From Candidatus Kaiserbacteria bacterium (GTDB taxonomy: Bacteria; Patescibacteriota; Minisyncoccia; Phycocordibacterales; UBA918), in contig JAGQME010000001.1 of NCBI GenBank assembly GCA_020428795.1, positions 24,178 through 88,177 on the forward strand: DNA of 64,000 nucleotides, written 5' to 3'. A program made the translations under genes and the position numbers. The first letter of the stretch is position 1. Each line of letters opens with the position of its first letter. Positions 896-25,926 of this stretch are shown one piece after another. The notes under the pieces are model-generated. The model worked only from the letters and a program-made list of their open reading frames with translations. It searched no databases and was not told the DNA's origin.

Positions 896-1075
896 TTGGC
901 AAGTTTTTAAATTAGTCCTTTGGCGTAGATAGCGCCTAGTCCCTGTAGTAACCTGCGAAGGTTGTTACTACTATAGCACATTTTCTGACTTTTGCAAGTT
1001 ACACCGTAGATTTTGTTTTTGTCAAAAAGCCGATGGTTTCTGTTTTGCTATACTATATATGACGTACATATATAT

Positions 1076-1993
1076 ATGAATCTTACTCAACTCAAACGCC
1101 AATTCTTGGAATATCTTGAAATCGAACGGGGTCGGGCAGTTAAGACGGTAGAAAATTATGATCGCTATCTGACAAAATTCTTTGAATATGCCAAAACCGA
1201 TGATCCAAAAAAAATAACCGAAGATATGGTACGTGAGTTTAGGTTGTATCTTAATCGTCAGCCAGGTACCAAAGTCGGTAGTCGAATAGATCCAATGAAA
1301 AGACGCACCCAAAATTATTATCTAATCGCTCTAAGGGCTTTTCTAAAATATATTAGAAAAAGAGGGGTCACTTCACTTTCGCCGGAGGTAATAGAGTTGG
1401 CTAAGGTGCCAGAGCGATCATTGGATTTAATTACTCCCCAAGAACTCGATAGGTTGATGAAAGCGCCCGACACCAAAACTCCGCAAGGTTTGCGTGACCG
1501 AGCTATTTTGGAACTACTTTTCTCTACTGGACTTCGTATTTCTGAACTATGTGCTCTATCGATTGATGATGTTGATTTGAGTCGAGATGAATTTTCGGTT
1601 CGGGGAAAGGGTGATAAGGTGCGAGTGGTTTTTTTATCTGATTCAGCCAAAGAAGCTATTAGTCTTTACCTAAAAGCTCGTAAAGATATGGATGAAGCAC
1701 TTTTTATTCAATATGGAAAACGAGCTGATAAAGCTAAGGACAGACGTCTGTCTACCAGAGCGGTCCAGCGTACTCTAAAGTCGGCAGCTATTAAGGCTGG
1801 TATCACTCGCAAGGTATCACCTCATGTTATTCGCCATAGCTTTGCTACCGACTTACTAAGTAACGGGGCTGATTTGCGTTCGGTTCAAGCTCTCTTGGGT
1901 CACGCTAACATTGGTACCACTCAGATTTATACTCATGTGACAGACAAACACTTGCGTGACGTTCATAAGAAATATCACAGCCGGGGTGGGTGA
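1076..1993 (+). CDS. xerD: Tyrosine site-specific recombinase, XerC/XerD family
   Basis: Core-binding N-domain followed by catalytic motifs ...RHSFATDLL... and LLGHANIGTTQIYTHV (catalytic Tyr). ORF-track start at 1013 is probably an N-terminal over-extension; MNLTQLKRQFLEYLE at 1076 is the more likely start. Confidence 0.88.
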   Translation: MNLTQLKRQFLEYLEIERGRAVKTVENYDRYLTKFFEYAKTDDPKKITEDMVREFRLYLNRQPGTKVGSRIDPMKRRTQNYYLIALRAFLKYIRKRGVTSLSPEVIELAKVPERSLDLITPQELDRLMKAPDTKTPQGLRDRAILELLFSTGLRISELCALSIDDVDLSRDEFSVRGKGDKVRVVFLSDSAKEAISLYLKARKDMDEALFIQYGKRADKAKDRRLSTRAVQRTLKSAAIKAGITRKVSPHVIRHSFATDLLSNGADLRSVQALLGHANIGTTQIYTHVTDKHLRDVHKKYHSRGG

Positions 1994-4546: not shown

Positions 4547-4620
4547 TGGTGGACTCACGGGGAATCGAACCCCGAATTTATCCATGCCATGGATACGTAT
4601 TACCACTATACTATGAGCCC
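4547..4620 (-). tRNA. tRNA-Ala (anticodon GGC), CCA encoded
   Basis: Reverse complement GGGCTCATAGTATAGTGGTAATACGTATCCATGGCATGGATAAATTCGGGGTTCGATTCCCCGTGAGTCCACCA folds as a cloverleaf. Acceptor GGGCTCA/TGAGTCC has the G3:U70 Ala identity pair. D-stem GTAT/ATAC; anticodon loop ATGGCAT; T-arm CGGGG-TTCGATT-CCCCG. Confidence 0.85.
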
Positions 4621-12703: not shown

Positions 12704-14515
12704 TTAGGACACCAAATTTTTTGACCAAGCTTTTACAATATTTTGTATGTTGGCGATCCAGTCGTCAGAATTATTAACTTCACCAATACTATCAACAATT
12801 TTATCTATTAAGATCTTTAGGTTATTGTGGTTAAACTGCTTGTTCTCTTCTCGCAGTTGTTTGAGTGTTTTTAATAATTCAATAAATTGCTTGATGGTGA
12901 GAGGGGCGATTTTTTGCTTTTGGCCTTTATAACCAACGGTATTCGCAATATAAAAAGTCTCAGCACTGTCAGTGTGAATTGTAGGGGCTAAGAAGACACA
13001 ACGGGCATTATCGTGCTTGTTTTCAAAATCACGTAAGTGTCGCATGACGGGTTGTCCCTCATTAAACCATTGGTCACGGCCGTTTAACATTGTGACCTCA
13101 CAGATCATATTAAAGCTATTGTAGAAACATTCAATGTCAGCCAAGCCACCTGGTGCGGTTGAAGTTGGTTGATTGTCGTCACCGACTGGGTAATTTGGTT
13201 TGATTTCTTTTGCGTCGTTTAGGGCGTACAGTCCCATTGTTGTTAGGTATTCAAGCATTAAGGCTCGATTTTCTAGTTCAAATATTTTTTCTAGTTGCTC
13301 GATGTAATCAGTAATTGATGAAATTGGTTGTGATTTGAGACGATTATTTTTTTCTTGTAAATCTTTACGTATCAAGCGTAAATTACTGATATGTAACGCT
13401 AGATCATCTTCAGTCATGGCGGATATAGCCGGCTGTTCATCAACTGTTAAACCAAGTTCGCTTTGCAATTCGATTACATTTTGATAGAGAGTATTGGCAA
13501 TTTCCGACAATTTATCTTTAGTATGCCAAGGTAAAATAGGTTGATTATCATCAGATAGATAGGTTAAATAAGCTTTTTTATCTACAAATTGTTTGGGTTT
13601 ATAGAATTCACTTTCAAATAAAGCTTCAATCTCAGTGTGTCGATTAGGTTCTAGGTCAATGTAGAAGCCATTACCTCGAATACGAACAAAACTGGTTAGA
13701 CGAAAGTATCTAATCGCATTATCACCGTAATCTTGCAGGTTTGTAATGAGTTTATTAATTTTTGCTTGATTACCAGTTCCTAAGAAATTAGTAATGAATT
13801 GTTTACGATATTTATCACGTATTTTTTTGCGTTCGGATTTCGTCTTGCCATTTTGTAGGTTGCGTAATTCGATTATTTTTCTTGCGTAGGACTCAATATC
13901 AGTATATTTAACCAAAGATGGTACAAAGAGTGAAAATTCCCCCTTGCTAATCCCCTTCGCCTTCTGTCCTTGTTCCATCTCCAATCTATTGACGGTGCTG
14001 ATTAGCTTTAAAGTAGCCACAAAAGGCACAGTCCCGTAATTACCATCGTTAGTAAATTCATTACTAGCTGGATTAGGTATTTGCCATTTAATAAATGATT
14101 TTAAGAACACTTCACCGGTGTTTTGGTCATCTTTGATCAGTTTTTTACCCAGCTCGGTTATCTTTAAAATTCCGTTATCAATAATCACAAAGCCAAACTT
14201 AGTGAGCGGGTTTAACGATTGGCGACCCCGCATCGAAAAGTCGGTGTAATTTTTTAATCTGAGAATCCTATCAATCGTTTCGTCATTAATTTCTAAGTCG
14301 GTGTCATTTATATTATTGATGATGTCCGGAGTTAATCCATTATAAAATTGCGTGTTGCCAAAGCCATAAAGTCTGTTTTTTATCAAAAGTTTCTGATAAT
14401 TGGCTTGATTAGCCTTATCCCAAGGCTTATTTTCAAGTAATTTAGTCACCACCAAAAAATCACGGAGACGTTCTGGGTTTCTGACCGTTGTTGTGATAGA
14501 CCAAGCTTTTAGCAT
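12704..14515 (-). CDS. Type IIS restriction (or nicking) endonuclease, AlwI / N.BstNBI / PleI / MlyI family
   Basis: 603 aa. Segments NPLTKFGFVIIDNGILKITELGKKLIKDDQNTGEVFLKSFIKWQIPNP, AIRYFRLTSFVRIRGNGFYIDL and MLNGRDQWFNEGQPVMRHL...CVFLAPTI match the conserved blocks of the RE_AlwI family as I recall them for N.BstNBI. Adjacent to a two-domain methyltransferase. Confidence 0.72.
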   Translation of the reverse strand: MLKAWSITTTVRNPERLRDFLVVTKLLENKPWDKANQANYQKLLIKNRLYGFGNTQFYNGLTPDIINNINDTDLEINDETIDRILRLKNYTDFSMRGRQSLNPLTKFGFVIIDNGILKITELGKKLIKDDQNTGEVFLKSFIKWQIPNPASNEFTNDGNYGTVPFVATLKLISTVNRLEMEQGQKAKGISKGEFSLFVPSLVKYTDIESYARKIIELRNLQNGKTKSERKKIRDKYRKQFITNFLGTGNQAKINKLITNLQDYGDNAIRYFRLTSFVRIRGNGFYIDLEPNRHTEIEALFESEFYKPKQFVDKKAYLTYLSDDNQPILPWHTKDKLSEIANTLYQNVIELQSELGLTVDEQPAISAMTEDDLALHISNLRLIRKDLQEKNNRLKSQPISSITDYIEQLEKIFELENRALMLEYLTTMGLYALNDAKEIKPNYPVGDDNQPTSTAPGGLADIECFYNSFNMICEVTMLNGRDQWFNEGQPVMRHLRDFENKHDNARCVFLAPTIHTDSAETFYIANTVGYKGQKQKIAPLTIKQFIELLKTLKQLREENKQFNHNNLKILIDKIVDSIGEVNNSDDWIANIQNIVKAWSKNLVS

Positions 14516-14536
14516 GGTCTGATTATGGCATAAAAG

Positions 14537-16525
14537 CTAATAATTAGTAATAAGTACCTCTACGGTCTTGTTATTTTTAGCGCTGGAGTGATAGTTGGAA
14601 TTTTTGTAATGATAATCCAATTTATGGACTTGGTAATTATGTTCTTTGGCCCATTTCTTTATTATTTTGTTAACATCGCCTTTATGTTCTAAGACGTTTG
14701 ATAGAGCAAATCTTACCTTTTTCTCGTCCAGTCTAGTCAAAAGTGAATAAAGATCCTTCTCATCCTTTTCAGTCCAGCCCCCCATTTCATTATAGCTAGC
14801 TAGACCCAATAGATAAGGTGGATCTAGGTATACAAAATCATCTTTATCCAACTTAATAGTTTCAATATCACGAAAATCTCCATTTTTAAAGGTTATTGTC
14901 TTTTCATTTGATATTTGGTTAAAAGCCGCTACGTTTTTTCTAGAACTGCCATTGTAGTCTCGTTTACCGACTGGCAGATTAAAATCACCGCTCGAATTAA
15001 ATCTTATTTGGTTATTAAAGGCGTATAAAACCAGCACTAACAGTAAATCAATCTGAGTTTTGTCTTGATTAAACTCATTACGGAGTTTTAGAAAAGCTTT
15101 TTTATTGTATTTTCCTAAACCTACTGAGCTATCAGCTTTATAGTGGTCGTAACCTTTGATATAGCTCTGACTTAAGTTAAAACGCTGAATGATATTAATT
15201 ATTTTCTGGTTCAGATCTTCAAAATTGTTGTTTTGAATCAATTTTAACAAGTTAACAACGTTATGATTTTTTTCGACACAGACTATATTTTGGGCTGTGG
15301 CATTAATACCAACGTTTGCACCACCGGAAAACACATCATAAAAAGTCTTAATGTCATCGGGAAAGAATTTTGTGATTTGCGGTAGAAGTTTGTGTTTACC
15401 ACCGGTGTAATTTAACGGCGATTTAACAAAACCACTTTGGACAGGGTTGTTTCTTGAAGCCATTATTTTCCGGCTTGAATTTGAAGAGACATTTACTTTG
15501 CACAAAAATATACGTTCCTTCAGATCATCTTTATTGGATTTACCGGTGGTAAATTGTCTAAAGTTAGTTTCAAAAACCTTTGTCTCTCCTCGTCTTTTTA
15601 AGGCTGATAGTATTTCATGGTCACTAATTCTCGACTGTGATCTCACATTTCCAGCTGTACCCATATCGTTATAAGAAACAAGAATGTATTTAGCTTTGAT
15701 GTTATCTATCAAATCACCAAAAGCAACCCCGGCCGATTTCATGTTGTATTTACTTTTGATGTGCGAACGGTCCATTTTTTTAGCAACTCCAAAAACCGCC
15801 CCTTTTTTCCAGGTAGCAATATTTTCTAGTAAATGATAAGCATCGGAATACTGTCTCGAATTATACGGTGGATCAATATAAACAATGTCGGCTTCTATTT
15901 TTTTTACCAATTCATTAGCGTCTTCTTTGTATATTTCAGTTAGACGAGTAGATTTTTTTAGTTCTAGAGGCAATAGAAAAAGCTTCTTTTCGGGAATGTC
16001 TATTTTTCTATAGGCGTCATAATGACCAACAGTGTTAGCGATTTTATCTAAGGCGTAAATTAACGATGTTATTAGATAGGCTTTCTCTCGGTAAGTGATT
16101 ACCTTTTTTTTAAATAATCCTTCAATATCGTCCCTAATAAAGCCTATTTTCTTAGCGTTTTCAGCGTCAAAATAAGTGTTAGAGAAGTTTTTAGAGAAGT
16201 AATTTTCTGGGTATTTTTGGGCTATTATATTGTTATAATACTTTAGTTTTTCTCTTAATTTTTTTTCTTGTATTTTGTCTTTACCAAAAAAAGCGGTGTA
16301 TACATAAGAATTTGAGTCCAAAATATCGTTTACGATAATTTTAGATTGATCATAAAAGTGATTGGCCACGGTACCGGTACCGGCAAAAATATCAGCAAAT
16401 GAATCAAATTTTATGTTTTCATCTCTTATTATTTTGTCTATAAAAGATAGAAGTTTGGTTTTAGAACCAAGATAGCGTCTCTGGGCCAGGTTAACCTTTT
16501 TATTTCCAAAATAGGCATCTTGCAT
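14537..16525 (-). CDS. Fused two-domain N6-adenine DNA methyltransferase (two Dam/D12-class modules), type IIS modification enzyme
   Basis: 662 aa with two copies of motif I + motif IV: FADIFAGTGTV ... VYIDPPYNSRQY and FYDVFSGGANVG ... VYLDPPYLLGLASY. Tandem MTase modules are typical for asymmetric type IIS sites. Confidence 0.85.
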   Translation of the reverse strand: MQDAYFGNKKVNLAQRRYLGSKTKLLSFIDKIIRDENIKFDSFADIFAGTGTVANHFYDQSKIIVNDILDSNSYVYTAFFGKDKIQEKKLREKLKYYNNIIAQKYPENYFSKNFSNTYFDAENAKKIGFIRDDIEGLFKKKVITYREKAYLITSLIYALDKIANTVGHYDAYRKIDIPEKKLFLLPLELKKSTRLTEIYKEDANELVKKIEADIVYIDPPYNSRQYSDAYHLLENIATWKKGAVFGVAKKMDRSHIKSKYNMKSAGVAFGDLIDNIKAKYILVSYNDMGTAGNVRSQSRISDHEILSALKRRGETKVFETNFRQFTTGKSNKDDLKERIFLCKVNVSSNSSRKIMASRNNPVQSGFVKSPLNYTGGKHKLLPQITKFFPDDIKTFYDVFSGGANVGINATAQNIVCVEKNHNVVNLLKLIQNNNFEDLNQKIINIIQRFNLSQSYIKGYDHYKADSSVGLGKYNKKAFLKLRNEFNQDKTQIDLLLVLVLYAFNNQIRFNSSGDFNLPVGKRDYNGSSRKNVAAFNQISNEKTITFKNGDFRDIETIKLDKDDFVYLDPPYLLGLASYNEMGGWTEKDEKDLYSLLTRLDEKKVRFALSNVLEHKGDVNKIIKKWAKEHNYQVHKLDYHYKNSNYHSSAKNNKTVEVLITNY

Positions 16526-16696: not shown

Positions 16697-17359
16697 ATGG
16701 TTCGAGATGAAAAAAAGCTAGAAATGGCAACGTATTATCGCAAGCGGGGTTTTTCTTATTCTGAGATAGCTAAAATAGTGGGAGTTTCAAAAGGTACAGT
16801 GAGTGCTTGGCTTAGTAAAAAATCCTTTTCAAAGAAGATAAAAACAGAAAATATCGCCCGTTCAGCTAAAGATAGCGCTACTCGACTGAGGTTGATTAAT
16901 TCAGCTCGCTATAAAGAACGTAGTAAGTTGTATGCACAAACCATAAAAGATGCTAAAACCCAATTTAAGCTCTACAAAAAAGACCCGCTATTTATCGCTG
17001 GCCTAATGCTCTACCGTAGCGTTGGGGCCAGTAAAGATGAAAGATTGATTAGGGTCACTAACTCAGAGTTAGATATTCATCGGATATTTATTAAGTTTAG
17101 TAAGACTTATTTAGGAGTAGAAAAAGACCAGATCAAGTTTTGGCTCCTGCTCTACCCTGATTTAGTTGAGAAAAGCTGTGTTAATTATTGGTCTAAAGGC
17201 TTAAAACTAAAATCTGCTCAGTGGTATAAAAATCAGGTTGTTTCTGGGCGAAGTAAAAAACAAACATTGCTTTATGGAGTTGGAAATACTATAATCGGAG
17301 GCACTGTTTTAAGGTTGAGGTTGATCACTTGGGTGGAGTTAGCTTTAAAAGAGTTGTAG
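16697..17359 (+). CDS. Hypothetical protein with N-terminal helix-turn-helix
   Basis: 220 aa; FSYSEIAKIVGVSKGTVSAWL is an HTH (sigma region-4/resolvase-type); the remainder is basic with no recognisable domain; lies between the R-M genes and tRNA-Gly. Confidence 0.4.
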   Translation: MVRDEKKLEMATYYRKRGFSYSEIAKIVGVSKGTVSAWLSKKSFSKKIKTENIARSAKDSATRLRLINSARYKERSKLYAQTIKDAKTQFKLYKKDPLFIAGLMLYRSVGASKDERLIRVTNSELDIHRIFIKFSKTYLGVEKDQIKFWLLLYPDLVEKSCVNYWSKGLKLKSAQWYKNQVVSGRSKKQTLLYGVGNTIIGGTVLRLRLITWVELALKEL

Positions 17360-17377
17360 GTACAATTAAATATAAAT

Positions 17378-17448
17378 GCGGCCATGGTTAAGTGGTATAA
17401 TGAGTCCTTGCCAAGGATTAGTCGGGAGTTCGATTCTCCCTGGCCGCA
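17378..17448 (+). tRNA. tRNA-Gly (anticodon GCC), CCA not encoded
   Basis: GCGGCCATGGTTAAGTGGTATAATGAGTCCTTGCCAAGGATTAGTCGGGAGTTCGATTCTCCCTGGCCGCA. Acceptor GCGGCCA/TGGCCGC; anticodon stem AGTCC/GGATT with loop TTGCCAA; T-arm GGGAG-TTCGATT-CTCCC. Confidence 0.88.
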
Positions 17449-17451
17449 CAA

Positions 17452-17777: not shown

Positions 17778-18422
17778 TTATTTAAAATTTATGAACACTA
17801 AAAATATAGCTATGCTAAAGGCTATATACTCGGTTATTGAAACCCAGTTAAGGCGTAGGTAATATTTTTCAATCCAATCTTCTATACCAAAACGGTTAAT
17901 ATAATCTGACAACTCTGCTTCCGACCAAGAGACTATAATTCGAAGCCTCTTCTCACTATCAGGTAAATTCTCCCAAAGACCTCTTTCTATCAATATTGAT
18001 TTTAGTAAATTCGCTCGTCTGCCAAGTAGTTTGTAACGTCTCTTGGTAATTGGCCACAGTAGCGGTATTCCCCATCCGGTGCCATAAAAATCATTGAAGA
18101 AATGTAGTAAAACAGCTATCAAAAACAACCAGCCCCAAAACGGTGCTAGGTAGATAAAAATAATACCTGCCAAAATAAATATTACCGGATAATGGAGGGC
18201 TTCTCTGTGGTCGTGGTTGTGTCCGGCTGAGGCGGCTACCCGACCTCTTTTTAATAGCTCTGGTAGGGCATCGAGGTCTGGGGACATGGCAAAGATAATT
18301 CCCACTATAAAATGCCAAGAGGGTTCAATTCCTACTATCAGCCCAGCTAAGATTGTAGCTAGTAAACCGTTAGCAACATCAGCAAGTAACGCTAGGACAT
18401 TTTTGATTTTCTTCATAGACAT
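17778..18422 (-). CDS. Membrane-bound metal-dependent hydrolase (DUF457/YdjM-like)
   Basis: 214 aa, multiple TM helices, H-rich motifs (HNHDHREALH; HFFNDF..GTGWGIPLLWP) as in YdjM family inner-membrane proteins. Confidence 0.45.
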   Translation of the reverse strand: MSMKKIKNVLALLADVANGLLATILAGLIVGIEPSWHFIVGIIFAMSPDLDALPELLKRGRVAASAGHNHDHREALHYPVIFILAGIIFIYLAPFWGWLFLIAVLLHFFNDFYGTGWGIPLLWPITKRRYKLLGRRANLLKSILIERGLWENLPDSEKRLRIIVSWSEAELSDYINRFGIEDWIEKYYLRLNWVSITEYIAFSIAIFLVFINFK

Positions 18423-18428
18423 TATTCT

Positions 18429-18782
18429 TTAATGAATAGTTTTAATTAGACCCATTTGACGCAATGTTTCGGCTAGTGCGTCATCGTCAGATATATCCAC
18501 AAATTCTTCTCTATGACTAGCAAGCTCAACGTATTCTCGGTAGGTGGCGCTGGCCGTGGTAACGGTTGTCCATTTTTTAAGGATTTCCGTTACAGAAACA
18601 ATACCAGTTTGATCACTTGGTTCGGGGTATAATTCGGGGTGTAATTTAAACCACATTCGGGCCAAAGCAATTTGTGCCTCAATAGATGATAGATTATATT
18701 TTGTCCCCTCAGGCCTTTCTTCTGCCTTTAGATAAGGGTTTTCTTGTATTAGAGGTAGGTTGTTTCTTTCCAATGAAGCCAT
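18429..18782 (-). CDS. Hypothetical protein
   Basis: 117 aa ORF co-oriented and nearly abutting the upstream and downstream genes; no recognisable motif. Confidence 0.35.
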   Translation of the reverse strand: MASLERNNLPLIQENPYLKAEERPEGTKYNLSSIEAQIALARMWFKLHPELYPEPSDQTGIVSVTEILKKWTTVTTASATYREYVELASHREEFVDISDDDALAETLRQMGLIKTIH

Positions 18783-18829
18783 AATTTAGTATGGATTGAA
18801 TCCTTGGTTACACATGAAACATTATATCA

Positions 18830-19672
18830 TTAAGATTTAGGGTTGTATGTGTAAAGGTGTACGTCACGTTGTGGGAACGGAATTGGAATATTGGCTCCAT
18901 CAAGGGCATTTTTAATCGATTCATTAAGGGTAAAGCGATGTTTTGGTTCGGTGCCAGCTTCTTTGACCCAGATCCTCACTAATAAATTAACGCTGGACTC
19001 ATCAAGTTTGTCTACCACCACCTGAGGGGCTGGGTCTTCTAATACTCCCTCTAATTCAGAAATAGCGTCAATAATCACCTCCCTAGCTTGTTCAATGGGT
19101 TGCAAATATGAGATGGAAACCTGACTCGTTATACGCACCATTCCCTCTTCTGAGTAATTTGTAACAGGATTACTAGTGATTTGTGAGTTCGGTAAATTTA
19201 TAAAAATATTATCGAGAGTGCGAATTTTGGTAGTACGTAAGGTTATGTCCTTTACTTGACCATACTTCCCTACCACCTCAATCCAGTCCCCATTCTTGTA
19301 TAATCTATCAACAAATATGTTAATTCCAGCCATAATATTAGCCAAAGATTCTTTAGCAGCAAAACCGACGGCTACTCCAGCAATACCAATACCAGCTAAA
19401 GCGGCGCTGACATCAATGCCGAGTTGGCTTAAAACCGTAATTACAGCAAATATGGTTATTAACCAACGATAAACTGATCTAACCAATATTTTTTGAAGAG
19501 CGCTTTCCAGTTTGGTCTTATGTAAAGCCGTTATTAATATACGAGACGTAATGTAGTAGAAGATAACAAACAAAACAGCCACTACCGTTGCTGATATTAA
19601 GTGTGGCACTGAAAGCCACATCGCCTCCGCTAAAGTTAATTGGGGTATATTTAATGAACCAAAGGCCTCCAT
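18830..19672 (-). CDS. Small-conductance mechanosensitive channel, MscS family
   Basis: 280 aa; TM helices followed by NIMAGINIFVDRLYKNGDWIEVVGKYGQVKDITLRTTKIRTLDN..INLPNSQI, the MscS beta-domain signature. Confidence 0.85.
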   Translation of the reverse strand: MEAFGSLNIPQLTLAEAMWLSVPHLISATVVAVLFVIFYYITSRILITALHKTKLESALQKILVRSVYRWLITIFAVITVLSQLGIDVSAALAGIGIAGVAVGFAAKESLANIMAGINIFVDRLYKNGDWIEVVGKYGQVKDITLRTTKIRTLDNIFINLPNSQITSNPVTNYSEEGMVRITSQVSISYLQPIEQAREVIIDAISELEGVLEDPAPQVVVDKLDESSVNLLVRIWVKEAGTEPKHRFTLNESIKNALDGANIPIPFPQRDVHLYTYNPKS

Positions 19673-19747
19673 ACTAGATTACTTTAATTATAGCAGTCGT
19701 CTAACAAAATATAGATACCACTCTTAATAACTCGGCAAATAATCATC

Positions 19748-19900
19748 TTATCCCCAGTGTCCCATAGAAACCATAATTTGGGGACAAAAGTGGATAACCG
19801 AGTGGATAGGTGGATAAAGGACAGAAGCCATTTGTCCTTTAAAGAATAAACAAACTATGTTTTTAGCCATTTTCTATTAAAATCGCTATTTTTATCCAAA
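19748..19900. promoter_or_regulatory. Cluster of DnaA-box-like 9-mers next to an AT-rich tract (candidate DnaA-binding region)
   Basis: TTATCCCCA (19748), AGTGGATAA (19789), AGTGGATAG (19801), GGTGGATAA (19809) and TTATCCAAA (19892), each within 1-2 mismatches of TTATCCACA or its complement TGTGGATAA; followed by an A/T-rich segment. Confidence 0.35.
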
Positions 19901-20141
19901 AAATCTAATAATACGTTTCACGTGAAACATATGACCAGTTTGTTTCATATGAAACGGATTGAAGGTGATAGGTTTATATCCCAGCTTCTTTATCGCGACA
20001 AATAGTTTAATGCTTAATATTTAAGCGTTTGAGCTTAATTTAGTTAATTAAGATATGTTCCATGTGTAACCAATGGTAATAATTAAGCACTTTATTAAAG
20101 TATTATAGAGCTTGGCGACAGATTGGTGCTATGATTAGTCT

Positions 20142-20546
20142 ATGGTTAGTAAGGTTGATAATAAGAAAACCGGTGATTTAGGTGAATTGATTACTGCCAA
20201 TTGGTTGGAAAATAAGGGCTATACAATTCTTAATTTAAAATATCTAAAGAAATATGGTGAAATTGATGTGGTGGCTCAAAAGGATTTAACGGTACATTTT
20301 ATTGAGGTCAAAACGGTTTCATATGAAACTAGGCAGGCTTTGGAATATGCTGTTACACATGAAACCTGGCGACCTGAAGAACAGGTACATAAAAAGAAGC
20401 AGTTTCAAATTTCTAAGGCAATCGAGGCTTGGTTGGCTGAGTATCGCTACACCGGAGACTTTCAGATTGATGTAGCGGCCGTGCGTATTGTTCCACGTGA
20501 AACATATGCCACTATTAATTTTCTAGATAATGTGATATTTGAGTGA
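20142..20546 (+). CDS. YraN-like (UPF0102) putative endonuclease
   Basis: 134 aa; GDLGELITANWLENKGYTILN ... GEIDVVAQ ... HFIEVKT fits the YraN/UPF0102 pattern. The coding sequence contains four copies of a 14-bp palindrome family. Confidence 0.65.
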   Translation: MVSKVDNKKTGDLGELITANWLENKGYTILNLKYLKKYGEIDVVAQKDLTVHFIEVKTVSYETRQALEYAVTHETWRPEEQVHKKKQFQISKAIEAWLAEYRYTGDFQIDVAAVRIVPRETYATINFLDNVIFE

Positions 20547-20727
20547 TCTTGGCACTGTTTCATGTGTAACGGACCCTTTTTGTTAGATTTGTTAACGAAA
20601 CACCTTGTTTTAGTCTAACGCAACCAACAAAACCCTTAGGGCAAATATTTTGCTGTAGGGGTTTTGTACTACTCTATATTTCTGAAGTAATCTTTTATTA
20701 AATTTATTGTGTGATACATTGGTGATA

Positions 20728-21292: not shown

Positions 21293-21363
21293 CGGGGTGT
21301 AGCATAGTGGTAGTGTACGCGGTTTGGGACCGTGTGGTCCGGGTTCGATTCCCGGCTCCCCGA
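21293..21363 (+). tRNA. tRNA-Pro (anticodon TGG), CCA not encoded; acceptor stem has one T-T mismatch and the D-stem is short
   Basis: CGGGGTGTAGCATAGTGGTAGTGTACGCGGTTTGGGACCGTGTGGTCCGGGTTCGATTCCCGGCTCCCCGA. Anticodon stem CGCGG/CCGTG with loop TTTGGGA; T-arm CCGGG-TTCGATT-CCCGG. Imperfect acceptor and D arms lower confidence. Confidence 0.7.
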
Positions 21364-21364
21364 C

Positions 21365-24338: not shown

Positions 24339-25841
24339 ATGAAGAAATTTACTCAACAACTACATAAAAAGACCGACGGCATTTATCTGCGGTCTAGTGA
24401 GAAGCGTCTGCTACGGGAGCGAGTTGTTGCTTATATGGAGTATCATCCATTACCGACTAATTTAAATACTAAGAAAGCGGACCAGAAACAGTCTGTTTCG
24501 AAAAACAGTAAGTCTATCACCTCAGAAGCGTTTGTAGTTTTTAAGCTAAACGCTCGCTGGTTCCAGAGCTTTGCCATTTTAGGGGTGTTGTTTATCGTGG
24601 TTGGTCTGCCAACTTTGGCTGAAAGATCACTACCAGGCGATATTTTGTATCCAATGAAAGTACAGGTAAACGAAGAAGTACGTTCTTCTCTGGCCTTTTC
24701 TCCGTACGCAAAAGTAGAGTGGGAAGCGACTCGACTGGAACGTCGTTTGGCCGAAGCTCGTTTGCTCGCTCAAGCTGGAAAACTAACCGAAGAAGTGGAG
24801 CAAGATGTGGCCGAGGCTGTTAAGAAGCATTCAGACTCAGCTCAACAAACAATTCTAGCTCTAAAAGCCACCGATACTGAGGAAGCTGCTTTAGCCGAAA
24901 TTTCACTGGTTTCCGTCTTAGAGGCTCAGAATGACTTATTTAATATCCAGAATGAAACGGAAACATCGGTAGATGATTCGGGTGAAGGGATGGTTAAAGA
25001 AAATAATGGCACCTTAGCCATGGCGGTCAGAACAGCTTTTGTGGCCGCTGAGAACGTGCACAAAGATACCCCGGTGACTCCGGCTCGGCTGTTTGCGGTA
25101 ATTGAAAAGGAAACCACCTACGCAGAGGAATTGTTTGCTTCAATCTCAAAAGACACTTCGGCTGAAGAAAAACAAAATATCGACAGAAGGTTGGATGATA
25201 TAAGACGAAAAGTAGAAGAAGCTCAGAAGTTAAACATTTCTTTAGCGGAAATGTCTCCTGAAATTTCTGTTATTAATGAGGCTAGTACCTCGGATGGTGA
25301 TTTGGTTTCTCAAGACAATGATATTGAGACTGAGGTAGAGGTTGGGAGCGATAACGGTCTTTATCTAAAGACAAATCAGGAGATTTTGAGTCTATTAAGG
25401 ATAGCTCTGACTGACACCAGAAAACTAATCAATTTTATGACTGATATTGAAATCCGTAATTCTTTTTCTGTCGATGAGTTAGTACCAATTACTCTGACAA
25501 CTGAAGAGAGACAGATTGCTGTTAAGGAAAATCTTAATAAGGTGTCTAGTTTGATGAAGGTGGTTAATTCCAAAAAGCTAGAAGCGGAATTGGTGGATAA
25601 GGTAACAACCGGCAAAGCAACAGTCAGTGAGTTAGTTGAAAAAGCCAATTTAGCTTTGGAAAAAGAAGCTTTGACTGAAGCTGAACAAGCGACTAATGAT
25701 GCGTTAAGTTTGGCCGAGGACCTAATGGTCTTAACTGATAAGAGTCCGGTTGATCTAACTAATATTTCAATTGTAAACTCTTCTTCCAGTACCGCTACCG
25801 CTACTGATGAAATAGTATCGACCACCACGGATGGTGTTTAG
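24339..25841 (+). CDS. Putative anti-sigma factor / DUF5667-like membrane protein cotranscribed with the ECF sigma
   Basis: 500 aa; one TM helix (FQSFAILGVLFIVVGLPTLA) after a cytoplasmic N-terminus; long helical extracytoplasmic domain; stop/start within 8 bp of the sigma gene. Confidence 0.5.
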   Translation: MKKFTQQLHKKTDGIYLRSSEKRLLRERVVAYMEYHPLPTNLNTKKADQKQSVSKNSKSITSEAFVVFKLNARWFQSFAILGVLFIVVGLPTLAERSLPGDILYPMKVQVNEEVRSSLAFSPYAKVEWEATRLERRLAEARLLAQAGKLTEEVEQDVAEAVKKHSDSAQQTILALKATDTEEAALAEISLVSVLEAQNDLFNIQNETETSVDDSGEGMVKENNGTLAMAVRTAFVAAENVHKDTPVTPARLFAVIEKETTYAEELFASISKDTSAEEKQNIDRRLDDIRRKVEEAQKLNISLAEMSPEISVINEASTSDGDLVSQDNDIETEVEVGSDNGLYLKTNQEILSLLRIALTDTRKLINFMTDIEIRNSFSVDELVPITLTTEERQIAVKENLNKVSSLMKVVNSKKLEAELVDKVTTGKATVSELVEKANLALEKEALTEAEQATNDALSLAEDLMVLTDKSPVDLTNISIVNSSSSTATATDEIVSTTTDGV

Positions 25842-25865: not shown

Positions 25866-25926
25866 ACTGAATCCTGTCAAATGAAACAACACCCGCAGGG
25901 TGTTGTTTCATTTGACAGGATTCAGT
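25866..25926. terminator. 29-bp perfect-stem hairpin after the anti-sigma-like gene
   Basis: ACTGAATCCTGTCAAATGAAACAACACCC-GCA-GGGTGTTGTTTCATTTGACAGGATTCAGT. Two further hairpins follow at 26055-26091 and 26101-26149. Confidence 0.6.

Follow-up and report, generated by a model that had tools for sequence, protein, structure and literature searches.

A probable parS centromere array in and around yraN, beside a probable replication origin, in Paceibacteria

Why does the gene for a small YraN-like endonuclease carry one and the same 14-bp palindrome in front of it, inside it and just behind it? We addressed this question in a 64,000-nt stretch of a Candidatus Kaiserbacteria contig (JAGQME010000001.1; the whole stretch is called the window below). 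For seven copies of the palindrome, the first-pass annotation had proposed either a protein repeat that happens to be palindromic at the DNA level or a multiplied operator of a dimeric DNA-binding protein. Judged by their sequence, the palindromes are most probably parS sites, that is, a chromosomal centromere array most likely serving as a chromosome-segregation landmark, and not a yraN-specific operator. We hold with good confidence that this is a ParB-type centromere array next to a probable origin, with yraN as its passive host.

The gene and the palindromes of the window are listed by position; the palindromes have no strand, and pLDDT is the predicted local distance difference test of the AlphaFold2 (AF2) model.

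18807..18820, no strand: parS-like palindrome GTTACACATGAAAC, intergenic between two minus-strand genes; two mismatches to the 16-mer; in a segment missing from related loci
19915..19928, no strand: putative parS core GTTTCACGTGAAAC, first of an upstream pair with a spacing of 27 bp; 15/16 to the consensus (19914-19929)
19942..19955, no strand: putative parS variant GTTTCATATGAAAC with a CATATG centre, second of the upstream pair
20057..20070, no strand: putative parS variant GTTCCATGTGTAAC, 85 bp 5' of the yraN start codon
20142..20546, plus strand: yraN (UPF0102, PD-(D/E)xK nuclease family, 134 amino acids); Pfam PF02021 E=5e-17; NCBIfam YraN; PDB 3FOV E=8e-9; AF2 pLDDT 88
20316..20329, no strand: intragenic putative parS variant GTTTCATATGAAAC, codons 59-63, VSYET; the best-conserved embedded site in the clade
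20352..20365, no strand: intragenic putative parS variant GTTACACATGAAAC, codons 71-75, VTHET; begins in the family's 'AVT' and enters a clade-specific insertion of 11 amino acids
20489..20504 (14-bp core 20490-20503), no strand: perfect 16-bp match to parS, TGTTCCACGTGAAACA, codons 117-121, VPRET
20557..20570, no strand: putative parS variant GTTTCATGTGTAAC, 11 bp 3' of the yraN stop codon; relatives have sites at +390 to +460

All seven palindromes of the first-pass annotation are present as written. Six of the positions given for them are right, and the fifth copy starts at 20352, not 20353. The eighth exact copy, at 18807, had not been listed. The pattern GTTNCANNTGNAAC has eight matches in the window, spanning 18807-20570 (1.8 kb), and none in the other 62 kb. 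Dinucleotide-preserving shuffling predicts 0.06 matches on average and two at most, and none of 100 shuffles reached eight. With up to one mismatch to GTTNCAYRTGNAAC the motif is found nowhere in the window outside the cluster; with up to three mismatches allowed, every match outside the cluster carries exactly three, which is the background level. Five of the eight copies are non-coding. Two of the three-mismatch matches come from an inverted repeat, CTGTCAAATGAAAC / GTTTCATTTGACAG, at 25874-25918, just past a gene end at 25841; it looks like a terminator hairpin rather than parS.

The same clustering is found throughout the class. YraN has 960 detectable homologues (best identity about 60%), and the comparison set consists of 80 yraN loci from different Paceibacteria species (L001-L080), with up to 10 kb per side and 1.22 Mb in total; figures for 81 loci include the window's own locus. 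The 80 loci contain 254 copies of the motif (262 with the window's locus), where shuffled sequence gives about 1.2. Of the 81 loci, 66 have one or more strict sites within 1 kb and 44 at least three, and there are many extra one-mismatch sites. In the 100 bp that precede yraN the density is 8.3 sites per kb; it is 9.0 per kb between +100 and +200 and 2.75 per kb right after the stop codon, and falls to zero in the ~530 kb located more than 5 kb from yraN. An abundant genomic word, uniformly distributed, was the outcome that would have emptied the cluster of meaning; it is rejected, given eight copies confined to 1.8 kb here and none in those ~530 kb. Most copies in the relatives are non-coding, and the non-coding copies hold their position across loci; the equivalents of the 27-bp upstream pair have a spacing of 24-26 bp. 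The gene order around the array is conserved as well: CCA-adding enzyme, helix-turn-helix (HTH) protein, tRNA-Gly, the region of DnaA boxes and parS-like sites, yraN, tRNA-Pro, CorA, a hydrolase, a sigma factor and DUF5667.

The embedded sites vary somewhat between species. An additional in-frame site near codon 40 (about +99 to +129 of yraN), absent from the window, is usually GTTGCACGTGGAAC or GTTGCACGTGAAAC and reads V-A-R-G/E-T; it is carried by loci L001, L006, L007, L010, L025, L027, L031, L032, L034, L041 and L045-L047. The site at codons 117-121, perfect in the window, is mostly one mismatch off in the relatives (VPREK, GTTCCACGTGAAAA).

The parS consensus TGTTNCACGTGAAACA is shared from Firmicutes to Proteobacteria (PMC7022226), and the 14-mer is its core. 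Positions 20489-20504 match the consensus at 16 of 16 positions and positions 19914-19929 at 15 of 16, and the canonical 14-mer core was found in 37 of the 80 related loci. In the logo of the 262 sites, the flanks prefer T...A, which lengthens the palindrome to 16 bp, and the two free central positions vary by transition (C141/T120 and A151/G110). The resulting centres are CATATG (93), CACGTG (82), CACATG (58) and CATGTG (27). Upstream non-coding sites have the canonical CACGTG in 50 of 111 cases, often 24-26 bp from a variant partner. Such a logo reads as the signature of a specific binder that would tolerate Y-R at the dyad, a tolerance atypical of characterised parS sets.

Three of the palindromes are translated. 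As the first-pass annotation had stated, they share a frame (frame 0, first codons 59, 71 and 117) and encode VSYET, VTHET and VPRET. A constraint on the protein only, with an internal V-x-x-E-T repeat whose palindromy is incidental, would agree with the alignment of 26 YraN homologues, in which VSYET, VTHE/GT and VPRE(T/K) are almost invariant. The codons speak against it. In loci L001-L052 plus the window, the share of the commonest codon per alignment column is 1.00 for V59 (GTT), E62 (GAA) and P118 (CCA), 0.98 for R119 (CGT), 0.96 for Y61 (TAT) and E120 (GAA), 0.95 for V71 (GTT) and 0.92 for S60 (TCA). In other conserved columns it is 0.3-0.75, the catalytic E-V-K included, and the catalytic residues D42, E55 and K57 are themselves invariant in the subfamily alignment; synonymous fixation is limited to the codons of the motif. 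The exact 14-mer GTTTCATATGAAAC encodes VSYET in 41 of 46 instances (89%), against the 2.4% predicted by local codon usage. Where VSYET is replaced, it is by VTHET, VSHET, VSYGT, VSRET, VSCAT and similar peptides, and these substitutions (S/T/P, Y/H/R/C, E/G/V/A) are exactly the coding range of NCA-YRT-GNA; the DNA motif survives and the protein varies. The classical YraN structure PDB 3FOV lacks the peptides, and the second site runs into the insertion specific to the clade. The AlphaFold model places the pentapeptides at a strand end or loop, in the low-confidence inserted loop and at a hairpin turn.

Because the codons are fixed, the substitutions stay within the degeneracy of the motif and classical YraN is free of the peptides, the DNA sites are the selected objects, and the yraN protein accommodates them. 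Conservation of the peptides among YraN homologues, taken earlier as the mark of a protein-level constraint, does exist in this subfamily, but it comes with fixed codons and with changes that follow the DNA degeneracy. A protein repeat that is incidentally palindromic is rejected as the cause by the codon comparison, and five of the eight copies in the window and most of those in relatives do not code for protein at all; we regard the probability of this explanation as practically nil. The other suggestion of the first-pass annotation, a multiplied site of a dimeric protein, was right in kind, but an autoregulatory operator of yraN is the poorer fit: the sites have the parS consensus, extend past the stop codon and 1.3 kb upstream, and are adjoined by DnaA boxes. 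For parS, its remark that it is unusual for site arrays to invade a coding sequence does not hold. A parS site within a gene is a familiar finding, and the one inside B. subtilis spo0J likewise reads V-P-R-E-T, in the same frame, as N-V-P-R-E-T. The best reading of yraN is that of a passive host gene of the array.

Upstream of the first site of the pair, the following elements were found.

19789..19817, minus strand: DnaA-box pair TTATCCACt + TTATCCACc, 20 bp apart; a weaker box lies in between
19816..19840, no strand: inverted repeat AAAGGACA-N9-TGTCCTTT, adjoining the right-hand DnaA box, with a conserved composite GGATAAAGGAC
19841..19914, no strand: 74-bp stretch with 80% A+T between the DnaA boxes and the first parS-like site, a candidate unwinding element or promoter region by its composition

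One-mismatch DnaA boxes in the window are at 19748-19756, 19789, 19809 and 19892-19900. The same-orientation pair with its 20-bp period is conserved about 100 bp upstream of the first parS-like site in close and distant loci. Class-wide, the density of one-mismatch boxes rises to 13.75 per kb between -200 and -100, from a background of about 0.3 per kb (about 40-fold); the upstream non-coding gap of yraN has a median length of 471 bp. The right-hand box is often extended by an invariant AGGACA / GGATAAAGGACA, and the composite GGATAAAGGAC is found at this position in 58 of the 81 loci and elsewhere 11 times in 1.3 Mb. Its inverted partner TGTCCTTT follows 6-50 nt downstream in 28 of these 58 loci. 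A further origin factor, such as the conserved HTH neighbour, may bind the composite or the AAAGGACA...TGTCCTTT repeat. A cluster of DnaA boxes with an adjoining AT-rich region, as expected of oriC, is present at 19748-19914, and the region is probably the replication origin, although this part of the reading is well short of certain.

By analogy with characterised ParB systems, we propose that ParB dimers would load on the eight sites (two of them canonical and six altered by transitions in the central CG or the outer positions), which would form a dense loading zone. Each site would be recognised via the HTH domains of ParB. On binding cytidine triphosphate, ParB would close into a clamp and slide onto the flanking DNA, and the resulting complex would mark the origin region for segregation and SMC loading. 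With the array about 100 bp from the DnaA-box pair and the AT-rich stretch, the centromere and the probable origin would make up one compact module. In the V-x-x-E-T pentapeptides, which lie at the ends of secondary-structure elements, codons have been frozen and the choice of amino acids channelled by selection on the DNA sites. Spreading of ParB could dampen yraN expression as a side effect.

What the data show is the clustering, the selection on DNA, the conservation of the module across the class and its closeness to DnaA boxes; ParB as the binder, a role of the module in segregation and the identity of the DnaA-box region with oriC go beyond them as inference. Several findings weigh against this proposal. 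Neither ParB nor ParA was found in the window (Pfam on 50 open reading frames, tblastn and phmmer) or within 10 kb of yraN in the 80 loci (1.22 Mb of flanks); the ParB and ParA query sequences were confirmed as genuine. The six window sites other than those matching at 15 or 16 positions have two to four mismatches to the 16-mer, mainly transitions that affect the central CG and the outermost bases, and about two thirds of all sites have CATATG, CACATG or CATGTG in place of the canonical CACGTG centre. Because of these mismatches and centre variants, ParB binding is assumed here, not demonstrated. A conserved rival binder is also at hand in the HTH neighbour, which lies upstream of yraN in 42 of the 80 loci and is always co-oriented with it. 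The gene dnaA is in neither the window nor 79 of the 80 loci. Finally, the orientation-corrected third-codon GC skew over L001-L080 is +0.13 to +0.17 in every 2-kb bin across the 10 kb right of yraN and about zero across the 10 kb left of it, a step with no negative side, and within the window there is no change of skew sign: third positions are G-rich on the plus strand on both sides, in nearly every gene.

Some of these points are softened by what is known or found. The par operons usually lie inside the 20% origin domain and are not necessarily adjacent to the origin (PMC7022226). Because the motif is the universal ParB site, we infer that a ParB encoded elsewhere in the genome is by far the simplest binder. 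The lack of dnaA/dnaN linkage is not disqualifying, since such linkage is no absolute requirement for an origin. DnaA and DnaN were sought among the products of the window with the same programs, and none was found. In one relative (L067, 683-4847) dnaA-dnaN lie 1.1 kb downstream of yraN, with DnaA boxes ahead of yraN as well as in the interval from yraN to dnaA, an arrangement that may be ancestral. The raw GC skew seems to switch at 20 kb, much of which is due to gene orientation. The corrected skew still jumps sharply, from about zero to +0.15, exactly at yraN, and this counts in favour of a place near the origin, as do the DnaA-box pair with its AT-rich stretch and the dnaA-dnaN genes of L067. 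A classical bidirectional origin is unsupported by the corrected skew, and it is because of the missing sign change that we call the origin only probable. The one-sided step could reflect asymmetric replication or rearranged left flanks. Corrected left-flank values of single loci range from -0.10 to +0.19; synteny on the left is moderate, and a hypervariable island accounts for the zero left skew only in part.

An unlikely but not negligible variant is that origin, centromere and yraN are fused in Paceibacteria into a fixed module of HTH gene, tRNA-Gly, DnaA-box pair, parS pair, yraN with two to four in-frame parS sites, a further parS and tRNA-Pro, unlinked from dnaA and parAB. The parS-like array flanks the DnaA boxes on a single side only, in step with the one-sided change of the skew (about zero to the left, +0.15 to the right). 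Replication could then be strongly asymmetric or effectively unidirectional, or the reader of the sites could be something other than ParB (the HTH/coiled-coil neighbour or YraN) in a lineage with remodelled segregation. The HTH neighbour is the following gene.

16697-17359, plus strand: HTH protein of 220 amino acids; N-terminal HTH, single helix of 50 residues and alpha/beta domain; AF2 pLDDT 91.6

It has 617 homologues, restricted to this bacterial group, none of them from plasmids or phages. Beyond the HTH, with a weak MerR_1 match, no Pfam or NCBIfam family was found for it, and no PDB entry matches by sequence or fold. A disguised ParB or LAGLIDADG protein was considered and rejected (hhalign against Spo0J, probability 1.2%; no family or fold match). 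This protein is the best candidate for a lineage-specific dimeric regulator that would bind the palindromes, as an origin or centromere factor or as the transcriptional regulator of the module. Its modelled architecture resembles that of dimeric MerR-like regulators, which bind palindromes. The gene ends 330-460 bp before yraN in several loci, so the DnaA-box and parS region is an intergenic space common to both genes, and no ParB or ParA gene was found near yraN in the loci. We nevertheless consider such a regulator improbable: convergence on the one 16-mer that is the ParB site across phyla is unlikely, boxes and near-parS sites persist in the distant loci L054-L080, where the HTH neighbour is missing, the upstream region of the HTH gene itself has no copy of the motif, and the protein is not detectably related to the HTH domain of ParB.

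Less probable again is an autoregulatory operator array by which a repressor or activator would control yraN transcription. Three sites do lie in the last 230 bp ahead of the start codon, and the association of sites with yraN holds in all loci. Sites are also found within the coding sequence, past the stop codon and, for the window, among unrelated genes 1.3 kb upstream; their sequence equals parS, and the adjacent DnaA boxes better fit an element of the origin region. Scans of the locus for promoters and terminators stayed at background level, and the promoter-consensus scan of the region was no better than shuffled sequence. YraN might itself bind or nick sites in cis, its PD-(D/E)xK fold being of a kind that often recognises palindromes as a dimer. 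The tight class-wide linkage of array and gene, the invariance of the catalytic residues and the want of par genes nearby are compatible with this. We rate it at the bottom of the improbable range, just beneath the operator, with no evidence of sequence specificity for any YraN, a motif that is the canonical ParB site and the hazard of an active nuclease cutting beside DnaA boxes; yraN being simply the neighbour gene of the origin explains the linkage equally well.

The chromosomal setting of the array is ordinary. The window encodes NusA, trigger factor, ClpP, RNase Y, rpsL, type IV pilus genes and glycolytic enzymes, and an Rfam scan returned tRNAs only. The tRNA-Gly gene (17378-17449) is conserved upstream of yraN, with 51 plus-strand copies. 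The tRNA-Pro gene (TGG in the window, 21293-21364) is found downstream of yraN, at +0.4 to +2.5 kb, in 72 copies over 80 loci, 39 on the plus and 33 on the minus strand, and this mixture suggests recurrent local inversion.

Two segments of the window have no equivalent in relatives. The first, 12704-16525 on the minus strand between the CCA-adding enzyme and the HTH gene, encodes an AlwI-type restriction endonuclease and a fused D12-class adenine methyltransferase; its GC content is lower (0.33-0.36), none of the 52 closest loci has a counterpart, and it was probably inserted recently. The second, 17778-19672 on the minus strand between tRNA-Gly and the DnaA boxes, contains genes for a YdjM-like protein, a hypothetical protein of 117 amino acids and an MscS-like protein, which are not there in relatives; the MscS-like gene matches just a paralogue at +7 kb in them. 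The eighth palindrome (18807) falls within this segment. At the left end of the window, a tyrosine recombinase gene (XerC/D-like or phage-integrase family, 1013-1993, plus strand) lies near a tRNA gene (4550-4620, minus strand). No record matches the recombinase product exactly as the window reads it; on the related contig L093 a version of 305 amino acids is annotated.

With its DnaA-box pair followed by parS-like sites, the yraN region would be a simple sequence mark by which to find the centromere, and probably also the origin, in a large uncultured class. It could be used for orienting and checking metagenome assemblies, for coverage-based estimates of growth rate and for designing vectors that replicate and segregate in candidate-phyla bacteria. 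The locus is also an unusually clean natural case of a DNA-binding site that overrides codon choice and dictates protein sequence, here three to four V-x-x-E-T pentapeptides in hundreds of species. Concrete oddities that can be tested are the skew step on one side and the missing nearby par genes. A search of the available literature found no paper tying parS, oriC or ParB to Parcubacteria, Patescibacteria, the candidate phyla radiation or YraN.

Among known systems, the closest in sequence is parS/Spo0J of Bacillus subtilis: TGTTCCACGTGAAACA (20489 in the window) is identical to the B. subtilis consensus (PMC7022226), and there too the sites are few and lie in the origin domain, often within genes. 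In contrast to this locus, the B. subtilis sites span hundreds of kilobases, with one inside parB. Here eight sites lie in 1.8 kb with no parAB within 10 kb, two thirds of the sites have CAYRTG centres other than CACGTG, and embedding in the host gene is class-wide. Multiple parS sites grouped near oriC are found in Caulobacter crescentus (5), Corynebacterium glutamicum (10) and Myxococcus xanthus (22) (Table 1, PMC7022226). The likeness is that several copies near oriC together nucleate one ParB complex. Those clusters extend over several to tens of kilobases, beside parAB and kilobases from the DnaA boxes; in the present array about 100 bp separate the first site from the DnaA-box pair, and the neighbourhood is free of par genes. 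Streptococcus pneumoniae has ParB-parS without ParA, mainly for SMC loading (PMC7022226). It is a precedent for parS without ParA, which was seen in neither the window nor the flanks here, but ParB is documented in S. pneumoniae.

NBS (ATTTCCCGGGAAAT), the site of the ParB paralogue Noc, is likewise a palindrome of 14-16 bp to which the HTH of a ParB-family protein binds. It departs from parS at the specificity-setting positions. The sites described here retain G at position 2 and A at position 7, as in parS, and NBS sites are dispersed away from the origin. Origins with Spo0A, CtrA or HP1021 boxes are similar in that sites of a second protein are interleaved with the DnaA boxes or lie beside them; those boxes are lineage-specific, whereas here the motif is the universal centromere motif and runs through a coding gene. 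This kind of element is well known; what seems to be undescribed is a class-wide module at yraN, with in-frame embedding that shapes the protein, a relaxed dyad centre and no linkage to par or dnaA.

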